64,000 nucleotides of DNA, from NCBI GenBank assembly GCA_965238005.1, contig OZ250165.1:3744001-3808000 (forward strand), written 5' to 3'. This DNA is from Longimicrobiales bacterium. Lineage in GTDB: Bacteria; Gemmatimonadota; Gemmatimonadetes; Longimicrobiales; Gaopeijiaceae. This document shows, piece by piece, positions 4,158 through 8,573 of the stretch. Position 1 is the stretch's first letter. Every line of letters begins with the position of its first letter. The notes under the pieces are model-generated. The model had not been told where the DNA came from. It did not search any database and was given only the letters and a program-made list of their open reading frames with translations. Position numbers and translations under genes: made by a program.

Positions 4158-4484
4158 TCAGAGCAGCAGCCACCAGAGGACCTTGGACGCCACATGGATC
4201 CTCTGGTCGGTGTGGAAGGCGATCCAGTCCTCGCACTTGGCGTAGTCGACGAACCAGTGGAGCACGGTCTCGGCTACGCCCAGCCACCAGACGCCGGTGA
4301 TCAGCGCGACGGCCCCTCCGTGGATGAGGGAGTGGCTGGTCAGCCAGTAAAACCAGTAGGGGAAGTGCTCGGTGTCGGGGGGCGGTGCCCGGTAGCTCCG
4401 GTGCTTCCCCCTCGCCATTGCCTCCGACTGGAACGCGAAGTCGGCCAGGGCGTGGCCGGCGATCAAGAGGAAGAGAGTCTGCAT
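4158..4484 (-). CDS. DUF3307-like membrane protein
   Basis: GHALADFAFQ...HSLIHG...HWFVD...DQRIH His/Asp pattern. Confidence 0.8.
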   Translation of the reverse strand: MQTLFLLIAGHALADFAFQSEAMARGKHRSYRAPPPDTEHFPYWFYWLTSHSLIHGGAVALITGVWWLGVAETVLHWFVDYAKCEDWIAFHTDQRIHVASKVLWWLLL

Positions 4485-4999
4485 GTGGCTCGTCGGGCGT
4501 CACGGAAAGCGGATTCGATGACCCGAGCGGTGACGATACCGCCCCAGGGGGAGACAATTTATCTCCTCCCGGAGCGGTTCGCTGCACTTTTTTTTGAACG
4601 AACCTACTGCGCACCTCCGAGAACGATCTCGACCCGACGGTTCTGCCGCCGGCCAGCATCGGTGCCGTTGTCGGCCACCGGTTGGGACTCGCCGGCGCCC
4701 TGGACCTCGAACCGTTCCGCGTCGAGACCCGGGAAGTTGGCCAGCAGGTAGTCCCGCACCGCCTGCGCCCGGCGCAGGCTCAGCGCCCGATTATAGGCCT
4801 CCGGCCCCGTGGAATCGGTATGTCCGGTCAGCTGGACGCGCTCGCCCGGCCGGCAGGTGAGAACTCTTCCCACTTCCTGGAGGATCGGGCCGGCCGTGTC
4901 TTCGAGCTCCGCGGAGTCGTTAGCGAAGTTGACGCCGCCGAAGGTGAGGCGTCCCTCTTCCTCGAGTTCCCGCTCGATCTCGCTCACGGGGCACCCGGT

Positions 5000-5281
5000 C
5001 TCGTCCACCTCGGAGCCGGCTGCGGTGTCGGGGCAGCGGTCGATGCCGTCCGGCACACCATCTCGGTCTCCGTCCAAAGCGCATCCGTCGCCGTCCACGC
5101 GAGCCCCGGGCCGGGTGTTCGGGCAGCGGTCGAGGCCGTCGGGGACTCCGTCGCGGTCGCCGTCGGTGGCGCAGCCGTTTCCGTCCACCTGGGCCCCGGC
5201 CCGAGTGCTCGGACAGCGATCCAGACCGTCGGCCACACCGTCATCGTCCCCGTCGGTGGCGCAGCCGTTCCCGTCTACGCG
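5000..5281 (-). repeat. ~90-bp tandem coding repeats (TSP type-3 repeats)
   Basis: Recurrent 30-aa unit DGDxDGVxDGxDRCPxTxxGAxVDxxGC; DNA ccgtcggtggcgcagccgtt at 5160 and 5250. Confidence 0.85.
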
Positions 5282-5387
5282 GGGACTTATATAGGATCGT
5301 AGCAACGTCCCATATTATCGTTTCACCCTCGCGAATACGATAAGAGAGTAGGGAGAAGAGGATTTAGGATTACGCGAGGAGAGAGAT

Positions 5388-6356
5388 ATGGCTGCGCCCG
5401 GTAAATACTTTCGTAAGGGACTTTCGCTAGTAGACATCATCCGGATGTTCCCGGACGACGAGGCGGCGGAGAAGTGGATCGCGGAGTGTCGTTGGGGCGA
5501 GGAGCCTGCTTGTCCTCACTGCGGCGGCCTTGACGTACAGGTGGGGGCGAAACATCCTAGCCAGCCCTACCGGTGTCGCGTAAAGGGCTGCAGGAAATAT
5601 TTCTCCGTCCGTACCGGTACGGCCATGGAGCAGAGCAATCTCGGATATCAGATATGGGCGATAACATGCTATCTGGTCGCGACGGGCCTCAAGGGACAGT
5701 CCTCCATGAAGCTCCACAGGGATCTAGGCGTGACTCAGAAAACCGCGTGGTTCCTAGCTCACCGCATCCGAAAGGCGTGGGAGGGCCAGCAGCACGACTT
5801 CGAGGGACCGGTGGAGGTAGACGAGACCTATGTCGGCGGCTTAGAGAAGAACCGCCACTGGAAGAACCGCACCGGACGTGGGATGGGTCACGGACACTCC
5901 GACAAGACCGCCGTGGCTGGAGTAAAGGATCGGGCGACCAACCGGGTCACCGCACGTGTCATCGAACGGGCCAACAAGCCTACCCTGCAGAGGTTCATCC
6001 GAGAGGTGACCAAGGACGTGTCTGAGGACGGCGCGAAGATCTACACCGACGAGGCCGGTTGCTACGCGGGCCTGCCGAACCATGAGACCGTCAAGCATCG
6101 AGTCGGCCAGTACGTGGACCGCGAAGCACACACAAACGGCATAGAGAGCTTTTGGAGCATGCTCAAGCGCGGCTACCATGGGACCTATCACCTTATGAGT
6201 CCTAAGCACCTGCAGCGCTACGTCAATGAGTTTTCCGGGAGGCACAACATCCGGCCCCTCGATACCATCGCACAGATGAAGTCCATCATCCGGGGTCTAG
6301 AGGGCAAAAGGCTGACCTACCGGGAGCTGACGGCTCCTCCTGATACCTACGCTTGA
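5388..6356 (+). CDS. IS1595-family DDE transposase
   Basis: Zn ribbon CPHC...CRVKGC, HTH (LGVTQKTAW), VEVDETY, IYTDE, HTNGIESFWS, YVNEFSGRHN. Confidence 0.95.
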   Translation: MAAPGKYFRKGLSLVDIIRMFPDDEAAEKWIAECRWGEEPACPHCGGLDVQVGAKHPSQPYRCRVKGCRKYFSVRTGTAMEQSNLGYQIWAITCYLVATGLKGQSSMKLHRDLGVTQKTAWFLAHRIRKAWEGQQHDFEGPVEVDETYVGGLEKNRHWKNRTGRGMGHGHSDKTAVAGVKDRATNRVTARVIERANKPTLQRFIREVTKDVSEDGAKIYTDEAGCYAGLPNHETVKHRVGQYVDREAHTNGIESFWSMLKRGYHGTYHLMSPKHLQRYVNEFSGRHNIRPLDTIAQMKSIIRGLEGKRLTYRELTAPPDTYA

Positions 6357-6382
6357 CGGGGGCGGACTCCGCGTGATTTTAT
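6353..6382 (+). promoter_or_regulatory. putative sigma70 promoter overlapping the transposase stop
   Basis: TTGACG-N18-TTTTAT with extended -10 TG; points into a structured region. Confidence 0.45.
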
Positions 6383-6536
6383 AGGGGATACGGAGGGTAG
6401 CGGTGTCAACTGACACTCGGAGGAGCATTCTCTGAGCGTTGCCTGTCGAGGACGTCGTCCTCATCTGCCGTACGGTCGTCGACCGATGCTCAAAACAGCG
6501 CGGCCCGGATTGACACTGCTATCCTCCGTATTCTCT
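6383..6536 (+). ncRNA. putative structured ncRNA (IS1595 cargo RNA 1)
   Basis: 27-bp uninterrupted helix 6383-6409/6510-6536 whose 4 non-Watson-Crick pairs are all G-U on +; inner stem GAGCAT/ATGCTC; hairpins GAGGAC-gtc-GTCCTC and CGGTC-gtc-GACCG. Confidence 0.55.
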
Positions 6537-6553
6537 CCTACCCCGCATGGCGA

Positions 6554-6829
6554 TCAGGTGTTCCCCGAGTCCCGCCGCTTCTGTTCCTGGTACTCCCGCT
6601 CCCGCTCTAGCCGGTCCTTGTCTTTTTGGGCCTCTTCCTTGACGGTATGCCAGACAAAGTAGCCTAACACGGCTACTACGATCATGACCATGAAGATGAT
6701 AAGTTCCGGATTCGCGATTAAATAGAGGACGCCTACACTCATCATACCGAAGATACCGAGGAGAAGAGCGCCCACGAATGGGGCGGCTATAATGCCTAGA
6801 GCAATGAGCAGGACGACTAGGCAGGGCAT
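6554..6829 (-). CDS. small membrane protein with charged C-terminal tail (IS passenger)
   Basis: 91 aa from ATG 6829; about 60 hydrophobic residues then KEEAQKDKDRLEREREYQEQKRR. Confidence 0.65.
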   Translation of the reverse strand: MPCLVVLLIALGIIAAPFVGALLLGIFGMMSVGVLYLIANPELIIFMVMIVVAVLGYFVWHTVKEEAQKDKDRLEREREYQEQKRRDSGNT

Positions 6830-6886
6830 CCGGGGCGAGTCCTGTGTGTGAGGATGCGCCCGGACATGGGTGTCGGGCCATTTGGT

Positions 6887-7028
6887 CACCACAGCACAGG
6901 AGATCGTGCAGGTCCTGCCTATTCGCCCTGCCTAAAGCTCAACGGGAGCTACCCGCGTAGTGCGGCCTTAGACAATACAGGCTGTGTTATTCGGCAGGTA
7001 ACCCGACTCAGGGTCCTGCACTGTAGTG
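6887..7028 (-). ncRNA. putative structured RNA or 5' leader (IS1595 cargo RNA 2)
   Basis: 14-bp closing helix 7028-7015/6900-6887 with 3 G-U pairs valid only on -; inner CCTGCC/GGCAGG stem and small hairpins; minus-strand promoter TTGCAG-N17-TAAATT just upstream. Confidence 0.45.
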
Positions 7029-7142
7029 ACAGAGCCAATTTATCATACCTGAAGCTGGGCTGCAACTACTATTGTGTCGGGAGGGTATACGGCGATAATC
7101 TGTTGTACGGACTGACTTTACCAATCCACAGGGAGGCATAGC

Positions 7143-7307
7143 ATGGACGCCGCCGACACCAAGTCAGAACCGGATGAGCTACAGATGCCGGAGCCCATAC
7201 CGGACACGCCTGAAAATATCATGAAGGCGATCCTGGCTACGCCGCCTCGCCGTCCGGAGGATTGGAAGTTCGTGGAGGAGTCCGAGGAGGGGGAGGATGA
7301 AGCTTGA
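7143..7307 (+). CDS. 54-aa acidic/Pro-rich small protein (IS passenger; below ORF-track cutoff)
   Basis: GGGAGG RBS; MDAADTKSEPDELQMPEPIPDTPENIMKAILATPPRRPEDWKFVEESEEGEDEA. Confidence 0.65.
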   Translation: MDAADTKSEPDELQMPEPIPDTPENIMKAILATPPRRPEDWKFVEESEEGEDEA

Positions 7308-7330
7308 CAGGAGCGATTATGGGGTGATTT

Positions 7331-7496
7331 CGTGAGAAGGTAGCCGCAGGGCGGTGTGCTAGCGCCCCGTTCTAGGCGGCTACGGTGGACTCATTGCATA
7401 GGCATCACCTTCCTTTGGTTGGTCACCTGCCTTTCTTCTCCTTTCTGCCCGCCTTGGGTTCTAGGGGCCAGCCGAGCGTATTCTCGGCTGGCCTCA
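7331..7496. ncRNA. putative structured RNA (IS1595 cargo RNA 3) with SD/anti-SD-like tracts
   Basis: GTAGCCGC/GCGGCTAC stem with inner GGGCG/CGCCC; three pyrimidine tracts resembling the 16S 3' end; perfect 11-bp hairpin 7466-7493; TTGACA at 7304. Confidence 0.35.
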
Positions 7497-8573
7497 TCTG
7501 TATCTACCCCGCAAGCTAGGAGTATTCCGCTGAGATGCGGCATGCGATAATGTGGGACGTTGCTACGGCCATATATAATCCCCTCTACGCGGGCTCCGGC
7601 CGGAGTGGAGGGACACTGGTCCGCGTGGTCAGCCACGCCGTCTCGATCCGAGTCGAGCGCACAGCCGCGTGCATCGACGCTGGCGCCCATGGGTGTGTCG
7701 GGGCAGGCGTCCGAGCTGTCGTCTACACCATCCCTGTCGGAATCCTGGCTTCCACTTGCACTCAGGAAGAAGGAGGCGCCCAGCGTGAACCCCCAGCCCC
7801 AGAACGTCTCTTTGGAAAGCGCCGAGCCGGCCAGCGCGGCAGCGGTGTTCGCCAGTGCGTCCGGGACCTGGTGCATTCGGGCCTCAGCCCGAAGCGCGAT
7901 CCTTGGGGTCAGCGAGAACCGCACCCCACCGCCGTACGTCAGCGTGAGGTCGGTCTCGGAGTCGAGTCCCTCGGGGCTCCAGCTCGAAGCTCCCAGGCCG
8001 GCGACGCCGTACGCCTGGATCCGCTCACCGAGCGGGACGTTGTAACCCACCCCAGCGCTGAAGAGCACCAGGTCCAGGTCCACCACACCTCCTGTCTCCA
8101 GCCTCATGTCCAGGGGGAAGTATCCACCCTCGGCATCCACGAAGAGGCCCGAGGCGAAGTTGTAGGCCACGTGGCCTCCGCCGAAGATGTTCCTGGCCGG
8201 ATCGACGAAGACCGAGCTGCTGCCGTCCGGATGGAATTCCGGTTGGTCGTCGAAGACCCCTACGAATGGAGAGATCTCCCATCCTGTGGGAACCCACCCG
8301 CCGGAGTCTTGGGCGGCAAGGGCACTCGGGGGAAGGCGAAGGTCACGGCCAAAGCCGACAGCGCTCGAATCACGGTGGCGATCCTTTCGTGTCCAGTCGT
8401 GTTACCAGATCACGCCTAATTCGCACCTTCAAATATACCTACACCCTCGATCTCCTCCACAGGGGAAAAATGGAAGGGGCATCGGGGAGCACGAAATCCG
8501 CTCAGGACCCGAACGCGTAGTCCCGCACCTCCGCCAGGTTGCGCCGTGACAAGGAACCAGCAGCTTACCTCCC

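Follow-up and report, generated by a model that had tools for sequence, protein, structure and literature searches.

A cargo-carrying IS1595-family element of a Longimicrobiales bacterium and its predicted leader RNA, a distant relative of sRNA-Xcc1

Within the IS1595 family of insertion sequences (IS), Siguier, Gagnevin and Chandler reportedly distinguished in 2009 the ISNwi1- and ISNha5-type groups as 'transporter IS', which carry passenger genes. Here we describe an element of this kind, located at positions 5282-7583 of a 64,000-nt stretch of DNA from a Longimicrobiales bacterium (assembly GCA_965238005.1, contig OZ250165.1, positions 3,744,001 to 3,808,000). This whole stretch is called the window, and plain coordinates refer to it. 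The element shares with the transporter IS the zinc-ribbon and DDE transposase, the terminal inverted repeats (TIRs), the 8-bp target duplication and the passengers inside the ends. It differs from them in that its lineage has a fixed end-gene encoding a 54-aa protein and, often, a structured leader in front of the cargo.

The described RNA to which this leader comes closest is sRNA-Xcc1 (Rfam family RF02221), an RNA of 87-88 nt that was first found in Xanthomonas and whose carriers are integrons, transposons and plasmids. A preprint (bioRxiv 10.1101/2025.06.18.660453) places it ahead of symE in the integron cassettes of Xanthomonas. A likeness of design only is seen to riboswitches whose sensing domain is set into the terminator stem, as reported for the HMP-PP thiS class (PMC6478431), where a closing helix with an alternative partner for its 3' strand likewise encloses a conserved core upstream of a gene; the leader differs from them as most members have no U run and the cargo has no common pathway. 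In the portions covered of the literature on IS1595 passengers and transporter IS, on structured RNAs of sponge symbionts and on sRNA-Xcc1, there is no description of an IS1595 RNA, of structured RNAs of sponge symbionts or of the 54-aa end-gene.

An earlier reading of the window, made from its letters alone, had proposed that the part of the element behind the transposase carries three strongly base-paired RNAs (segments 1 to 3 in the following), each behind a sigma70-like promoter, together with two small proteins, and that these RNAs form a regulatory, addiction or targeting module. The observation was partly confirmed and the interpretation partly supported. We consider a different arrangement the probable one, namely a cargo-carrying IS1595 element with three transcription units, in which a relative of sRNA-Xcc1 would act in cis as the leader of the cargo gene, whereas segments 1 and 3 would be one-off structures.

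The leader RNA and its kinship to sRNA-Xcc1

Comparison with related loci indicates conservation for only a single one of the proposed RNAs, which is encoded on the opposite strand. When the element DNA was used to search the window's own genome and the genomes of 60 relatives, only the transposase, part of the 54-aa open reading frame (ORF) and about 40 nt of segment 2 were matched. Wherever segment 2 is matched in other loci, the match precedes a gene, on the opposite strand from the query. In the plus-strand orientation as given the fold of segment 2 is not beyond chance (z -1.1, 27/200 shuffles), whereas on the minus strand the region reaches z -4.5 (0/200 shuffles) and can be read as a structured RNA with obvious compensatory changes. 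What had been taken for a plus-strand RNA is thus best read as the 5' leader of a cargo gene on the other strand.

The predicted leader extends over about 170 nt from 7030 to 6858 on the minus strand, ahead of the gene for a 91-aa protein (6829 to 6557, stop codon 6554-6556). It starts with the long outer stem P1, in which 7030-7014 would pair with 6901-6885. Within P1 follow, from 5' to 3', a small hairpin with GUCGGGUU at its end, a helix CCUGCC/GGCAGG, an internal loop with GAAUACAACA opposite GAAUA, a short GCC/GGC helix and a variable stem that is capped by an invariant hairpin, GGGUAGCUCCC (6954-6944). After the 3' strand of P1 comes ACAAYGGCCCGRC, which opens the last hairpin. In the window copy GUCGGGUUA is found at 7007-6999, and GGCCCGAC at 6878-6871 is the start of the last hairpin.

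The predicted promoter of the leader is located at 7065 to 7037 on the minus strand (TTGCAG, 17 nt, TAAATT), and P1 begins 6 nt later. A scan for consensus sigma70 promoters over 5200-7700 gave no site on either strand and only weaker matches, so that a sigma70-like promoter in front of each segment was not borne out. The TTGCAG/TAAATT pair likewise stays below the threshold of that scan, and it is the sole weak promoter match that recurs in relatives. The pattern TTGNNN, 16-18 nt, [TC]ANNNT is present at a fixed spot just upstream of the leader in 31 of 39 instances, where 3.7 would be expected.

A covariance model, R1, was built from 13 sequences of the leader. It matches three sites in the window's own genome, 16 sites in six of 101 genomes (the window's genome and 100 relatives) and, outside the phylum, 23 sites in five genomes, a single Latescibacterota genome contributing 14 of these. 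Covariation was tested on 39 aligned instances against 500 shuffles. In the alignment 92.8% of the cells are paired compared to 83.0% in the shuffles, and none of the 500 shuffles reaches any of the measures; as the instances were aligned by fitting them to the model and many of them are mutually related, these figures lean toward structure. Fifteen of the 25 pairs vary on both sides, and when the partners are slid by one to three columns, pairing falls to 32-53%. Covarying homologues in related elements, whose absence the sequence-only reading had named as a refutation of its proposal, were found for the leader.

Since P1 could not be aligned by MAFFT, it was tested separately by duplex energies in 36 instances, three instances without the anchor motif being dropped. 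The sequence of P1 varies everywhere and the stem always forms. The two strands of one instance pair with -35.7 kcal/mol, compared to -24.1 kcal/mol (sd 5.2) for strands taken from different instances. By hand tally, 28 of the 36 instances fold more stably as given than as their reverse complement, which argues for an RNA on the minus strand of the window. The leader thus has the form of a cis-regulatory leader, a covarying conserved fold that immediately precedes a gene and shares its strand.

In an Rfam search of the window at E values up to 1 no match was obtained, and under permissive thresholds the enlarged RNA was assigned to no family, either in the window or in 14 loci. The RF02221 model, whose membership threshold is 53 bits, does not match the window copy even at E values up to 10. 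In four genomes that were searched with RF02221 only sub-threshold hits were found. The best of these in the window's 4.84-Mb genome (23 bits, E 0.3) falls exactly on the third R1 hit, a short variant of the leader at C1:736235-736346. RF02221 is also the top Rfam match for three more short variants in transposon loci, with 26-28 bits, and in the phylum to which one alphaproteobacterial locus belongs it exceeds the threshold in 24 of 151 genomes. In the reverse direction, R1 matches 19 of 20 fetched genuine sRNA-Xcc1 loci exactly at the site of the sRNA, with 10.8-30.5 bits. In most of these genuine loci an ORF begins 20-50 nt downstream, and in none of the 20 is an IS1595 transposase or a 54-aa gene found nearby.

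Because the covariance-model hits are reciprocal and all those on the side of the window are sub-threshold, we classify the window RNA on comparative grounds as an enlarged, distant relative of sRNA-Xcc1 and not as a member of the family by the Rfam threshold. It is thus not an RNA without precedent. Both RNAs have the same core: a closing helix GYCGGG/CCCGRC, an inner helix with AAUACAA and GAAAUA-type loops, and a short CCC/GGG helix with a CCCGGCACC-type tail. Both are mobile and located just upstream of a gene. The leader differs in being about twice as long, with a 35-nt insertion in its inner loop that carries the invariant GGGUAGCUCCC hairpin, a covarying outer stem of 13-22 bp formed via a new 5' extension, and an extra terminal hairpin. 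Its Rfam score is none for the window copy and at most 28 bits for the short variants, its hosts belong to other phyla, and its cargo consists mostly of exported proteins.

Two further copies are present in the window's own genome. A second full leader is located at C1:29249-29383 (locus L104, 1750-1884, minus strand), scores 119.6 bits and precedes an ORF for a very hydrophobic protein of 84 aa. The ORFs flanking this copy are, judged by their sequences, presumably transposases of other families; the leader is thus also found away from IS1595 transposases. The short variant at C1:736235-736346 (loci L106 and L146) has neither the inserted hairpin nor the last hairpin, and the gene after it encodes a lipoprotein that combines collagen repeats with a trypsin-like domain. 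In two other genomes, matches to group II intron domains (161 bits each) were seen 1.1 to 4.4 kb from leader copies, at 2764-2987 of locus L133 and 184-410 of locus L214.

The leader RNA appears, by its distribution, to be typical of this IS1595 lineage. An IS1595-family transposase is located within 1.5 kb of 10 of the 16 R1 hits in the window's genome and the 100 relatives, and R1 matches 23 of 80 metagenome loci that were chosen by the transposase alone. Several of the locus sets were collected via transposon genes, so that the association in them is biased; the genome-wide searches with R1 are free of this bias. The proposed set of promoter-linked structured RNAs therefore survives in part, as one lineage-typical RNA instead of three. 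Relative to the transposase, 10 of the 16 distinct RNAs of the metagenome loci lie downstream and convergent, as in the window, four downstream in tandem and two upstream.

A 3.3-kb sister element, L008, was found in a relative of the same genus. It has different passengers, and its homologue of the 54-aa protein is 72 aa long; by eye, its ends are read as GGGAATTATATCC... and its duplication as TTTCGTTT. In locus L096 two transposon ends of the same type abut at about 4470-4545 with six T between them (by eye), and the leader promoter begins about 20 nt inside the second end, which places the RNA cassette at the very edge of the element.

The element, its genes and segments 1 and 3

The stretch 5282-7583 is an intact, recently inserted, cargo-carrying element of the IS1595 family, a transporter IS, and in this respect the sequence-only reading was right. 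Its two TIRs of 39 nt (5282-5320 and 7545-7583) are 85% complementary, and it is flanked by two identical copies of the 8-bp target-site duplication TCTACGCG at 5274-5281 and 7584-7591. Removal of the element together with one copy of the duplication in silico restores a single minus-strand frame of 495 codons that spans both flanks. The interrupted host gene belongs to the OmpA family and consists of an outer-membrane beta-barrel half and an OmpA-domain half with thrombospondin type 3 (TSP3) repeats between them. The G+C content is 0.54-0.62 within the element and 0.64-0.72 outside.

The transposase gene (5388-6356, plus strand) is intact and encodes 322 aa with an N-terminal zinc ribbon (PF12760, 3.2e-6) and an IS1595-type DDE domain (DDE_Tnp_IS1595, PF12762, 2e-35). 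Against the NCBIfam IS1595 model NF033547 it scores 176 bits (cut-off 75, E 8.4e-52). The whole element is present once in its 4.84-Mb genome, and the remaining IS1595 transposases of this genome show a DNA identity of only 66-67% to that of the window. Outside of its own genome, the best full-length transposases are 69% identical in genome records and 62% in metagenomes.

DNA contigs from public runs stop precisely at both ends of the element (compared over 4600-8200), and in one study a related strain has about 1.7% of the flank letters changed, with the flanks covered at higher depth than the element, which together with its junctions is letter-identical at a depth of 2. As the contigs break at the element ends and the flank letters differ while the element is letter-perfect at low depth, there is a hint, no more, that the insertion is polymorphic, with strains that have the element and strains that do not.

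Directly past the stop codon of the transposase, at 6357-6371 on the plus strand, a small GC hairpin is followed by a T-rich run. This terminator-like site is at chance level, as the scan found one such site and 1.2 are expected in shuffles. A 21-nt inverted repeat with 90% complementarity connects the 5' part of the transposase gene (5451-5471) with the 54-aa gene (7237-7257), both on the plus strand. It was rejected as a shared feature: the duplex has a z of -4.6 in the window and a mean of -0.12 in 34 related elements, and the repeat is lineage-specific or a matter of chance.

The ORFs of the region behind the transposase are those already proposed, one of 91 aa on the minus strand and one of 54 aa. 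The 91-aa ORF with its promoter and leader is a passenger unrelated to transposition. It encodes a small, very hydrophobic membrane protein that is nearly an orphan: one search returned only the protein itself, none of 80 related loci carries a relative, and three weak relatives (E 2e-6 to 1e-3) were found among 1.84 billion representatives.

In most instances of the leader a start codon with a ribosome-binding site follows after about 20-60 nt on the same strand. The proteins encoded there are unrelated to one another, and 22 of 32 have no Pfam family. The remaining ones are collagen-repeat lipoproteins, TM2 plus zinc ribbon, DUF4177, trypsin-like peptidase, SNase, M8 peptidase, cadherin-like proteins, an oxidoreductase and a DNA methylase. 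By a crude criterion and hand tally, 25 of 39 cargo proteins have a signal- or membrane-like start and 11 a lipobox-like motif. Among 16 such proteins from an independent set of metagenome loci, 12 have the N-terminus of a signal peptide or lipoprotein (by eye). The functional coherence of the regulated genes that marks a riboswitch is not seen here, export or membrane location being the only common trait.

The 54-aa end-gene (7143-7307, plus strand) is conserved in the transposon lineage and has the core PEPIPDTPEN..L.TPP. The protein has 40 unnamed relatives, none with a Pfam family, in which P.IPDTPEN..L.TP is invariant; a look-alike search returned unnamed clusters only. When one genome per species was scanned, the gene proved to have 132 relatives. 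The best 80 of these 132 loci come from uncultured bacteria which, by their record titles, belong to Gemmatimonadota/Longimicrobiales, Latescibacterota, Acidobacteriota, Chloroflexota, Alphaproteobacteria, Acidimicrobiia, Nitrospira and Binatia. By hand count, 62 of the 80 loci have an IS1595 transposase upstream on the same strand, 70 nt to 3.5 kb away. This makes the 54-aa gene the fixed end-gene of a lineage with cargo, and a handy annotation marker for it. The entropies at the three codon positions are 0.60, 0.35 and 1.34 in 58 distinct copies, which shows that the gene is translated.

In most relatives the core is preceded by an RGRP stretch, which is AT-hook-like, and the window's copy is without it. 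In place of the K/R-rich RGRP stretch, the window's protein has an acidic N-terminal stretch (encoded by 7143-7184). If one were to guess, the 54-aa protein may have an accessory role at the AT-rich transposon ends. Another 58 proteins (P0042-P0099), longer and unrelated, have its conserved peptide fused to one terminus, C or N. By their Pfam accessions, their domains are presumably RhuM, HNH, DNA methylases, ClpP, the N-terminal domain of integrases and, in one case, an IS1595 transposase.

Of the three segments described as strongly paired, two are indeed folded beyond chance in the proposed orientation, and these are the ones that the comparison leaves without relatives. Segment 1 (6383-6536, plus strand) is an orphan structure of 154 nt closed by a 27-bp stem, located where the transposase and cargo genes converge, between their two stop codons. 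Its fold reaches -83.6 kcal/mol (z -7.0, 0/200 shuffles as good), compared to -63.7 kcal/mol on the minus strand. When the two arms of the stem were compared by eye, all four departures were found to be a G in the 5' arm opposite a T in the 3' arm, which gives G-U pairs on the plus strand. Segment 3 (7331-7496, plus strand) is folded moderately beyond chance (z -3.7, 1/200 shuffles) and comprises two orphan hairpins, one at about 7340-7383 and a perfect one at 7464-7495.

Homologues of segments 1 and 3 were found neither in 160 related loci (80 from genomes and 80 from metagenomes) nor, with the element DNA as query, in the genomes of 60 relatives, and there is no second copy elsewhere in the window's own genome. 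Two candidates for a wider feature were rejected as well. A strong hairpin after the transposase (z below -3) is present in six of 38 distinct relatives, but these hairpins are unrelated in sequence. A 3' hairpin as a feature of the cassettes is not general either, since of 34 cassettes, including that of the window, only the window's has a 3' region below z -3.

As neither segment has a homologue anywhere searched, segments 1 and 3 are most likely terminators or insulators. For segment 1 a one-off role as terminator, 3' stabiliser or insulator is probable from its position and fold. The hairpin at 7464-7495 is probably the terminator of the 54-aa gene, because a U-rich stretch comes right after it on the plus strand.

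Proposed action of the leader and alternative explanations

In the arrangement that we favour, the first unit would be the transposase gene. The second, on the opposite strand, would be a portable expression cassette made up of the promoter at 7065 to 7037, the leader at 7030 to 6858 and the gene for the 91-aa membrane protein. The third would be the 54-aa end-gene. Segment 1 would end or insulate the two convergent transcripts, and segment 3 would be the terminator region of the 54-aa gene. The leader would most likely act in cis on its cargo gene. Its near-invariant GGCCCGRC could pair with the upstream GUCGGGUU to form the closing helix that is common to sRNA-Xcc1, or alternatively with a downstream copy of GUCGGGUU to form the last hairpin, and the choice between these pairings would decide whether transcription or translation continues into the cargo. 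The helix between GUCGGGUU and GGCCCGRC was proposed by RNAalifold and is 95% paired over 38 distinct rows.

Several points speak against this model. The changes in the closing helix are mostly one-sided, only two of its nine pairs changing on both sides. By geometric reasoning this helix would cross P1, which would imply a pseudoknot or alternative structures. The last hairpin is without a U run in most members, and a test of the invariant hairpin as an anti-Shine-Dalgarno sequence gave a weak signal (mean z -0.9; GGGAG or GGAGC in 10 of 21). The functions of the cargo are too incoherent to point to a ligand. To these come the lean of the alignment figures toward structure and the bias of the locus sets mentioned above, and the leader RNA is a prediction from DNA sequence. 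Finally, the title of Chen et al. in 2011 is said to call sRNA-Xcc1 trans-acting. In PMC2996969, sRNA-Xcc1 is reported as a discrete RNA of 88 nt on a Northern blot.

The last two points lead to the strongest alternative, in which the leader would be a stand-alone trans-acting small RNA like sRNA-Xcc1, with targets among the messages of the host or the transposon, and the adjacent gene merely the next passenger. The leader has its own promoter, a stable hairpin closes its conserved part, it is kin to the RNA seen as a discrete band (PMC2996969), and the cargo genes are unrelated to one another, all of which would fit such an RNA. However, a start codon with ribosome-binding site follows in most instances at the short distance given above and on the same strand, the distance is mostly 20-50 nt in the genuine sRNA-Xcc1 loci, and sRNA-Xcc1 itself is placed upstream of symE in the integron cassettes (bioRxiv 10.1101/2025.06.18.660453). 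We therefore regard a purely trans-acting RNA as unlikely, while it is the rival to be taken most seriously.

A role of the RNAs in the service of the transposon, as a guide or targeting RNA of the IS110 bridge or IS200/605 omega type or as a regulator of transposition, is far less probable. These systems too have a structured RNA inside a transposon that is typical of its lineage, and the link of the leader to this IS1595 lineage is strong. In addition, with the commonest layout being convergent with the transposase (10/16), read-through from the leader would be antisense to the transposase. The position and strand of the leader relative to the transposase are not fixed, though, since convergent, tandem and divergent layouts all occur; six of the 16 R1 hits in the window's genome and its relatives have no transposase within 1.5 kb, and none of the 20 genuine sRNA-Xcc1 loci is near an IS1595 transposase. 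A 9-nt match between the variable stem of the leader and the insertion junction of the window was considered as a targeting signal, but it is equalled by 36 of 500 shuffles, and L008 gives only 8 nt (71/500), so that the complementarity to ends or target which a targeting RNA would call for is not above chance. The transposase is of the DDE type, and such transposases are not known to require a guide RNA.

Still less can be said for an addiction module resembling type I toxin-antitoxin systems, in which the 91-aa protein would be the toxin and an RNA that begins near 6383 on the plus strand would overlap its message at the 3' end. Small and very hydrophobic, this protein would suit the part; segment 1 is favoured as a plus-strand RNA, the two units are convergent, and by eye a weak promoter-like TTGACG, 17-18 nt, TTTTAT lies ahead of segment 1. 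The promoter-like sequence fails the consensus scan, and typical type I toxins are shorter than 91 aa. Moreover, protein and hairpin are both orphans, so that no conserved pairing of toxin and antisense RNA is demonstrable, and among the 3' regions of the 34 cassettes that of the window stands alone below z -3. The proposal of an addiction module thus receives no comparative support, and we judge it highly improbable.

Equally improbable is that the conserved element acts as DNA, for example as a folded recombination or capture site marking cargo cassettes (cf. integron attC), for although it always heads swapped cargo genes in mobile DNA and its relative sRNA-Xcc1 resides in integron cassettes (bioRxiv 10.1101/2025.06.18.660453), many G-U pairs in its helices would be A-C mismatches on the other strand, the given strand is the more stable one in 28/36, its promoter is at a fixed distance, and sRNA-Xcc1 is a detected RNA (PMC2996969).

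Returning to the leader as a cis-acting element, we put forward only tentatively, and with low expectation, that it could be a sensor of a ligand or protein, possibly of the 54-aa protein. It would then be a portable, host-independent switch for captured surface or secreted cargo under a particular condition, e.g., inside an animal host, and convergent copies might throttle transposition by antisense read-through. If this were true, the whole sRNA-Xcc1 superfamily would be a widespread, unrecognised class of mobile cis-regulators.

The enlarged form of the RNA is missed entirely by the current Rfam model. Because of its long covarying helices and several invariant loops it is a good orphan candidate for the search for a ligand or protein partner. 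If the leader regulates its cargo, sRNA-Xcc1, filed as a trans-acting sRNA of Xanthomonas, would be the smallest member of a far larger family of mobile leaders, and a common class of transposons would spread regulated cassettes of surface and secreted proteins over at least half a dozen phyla.

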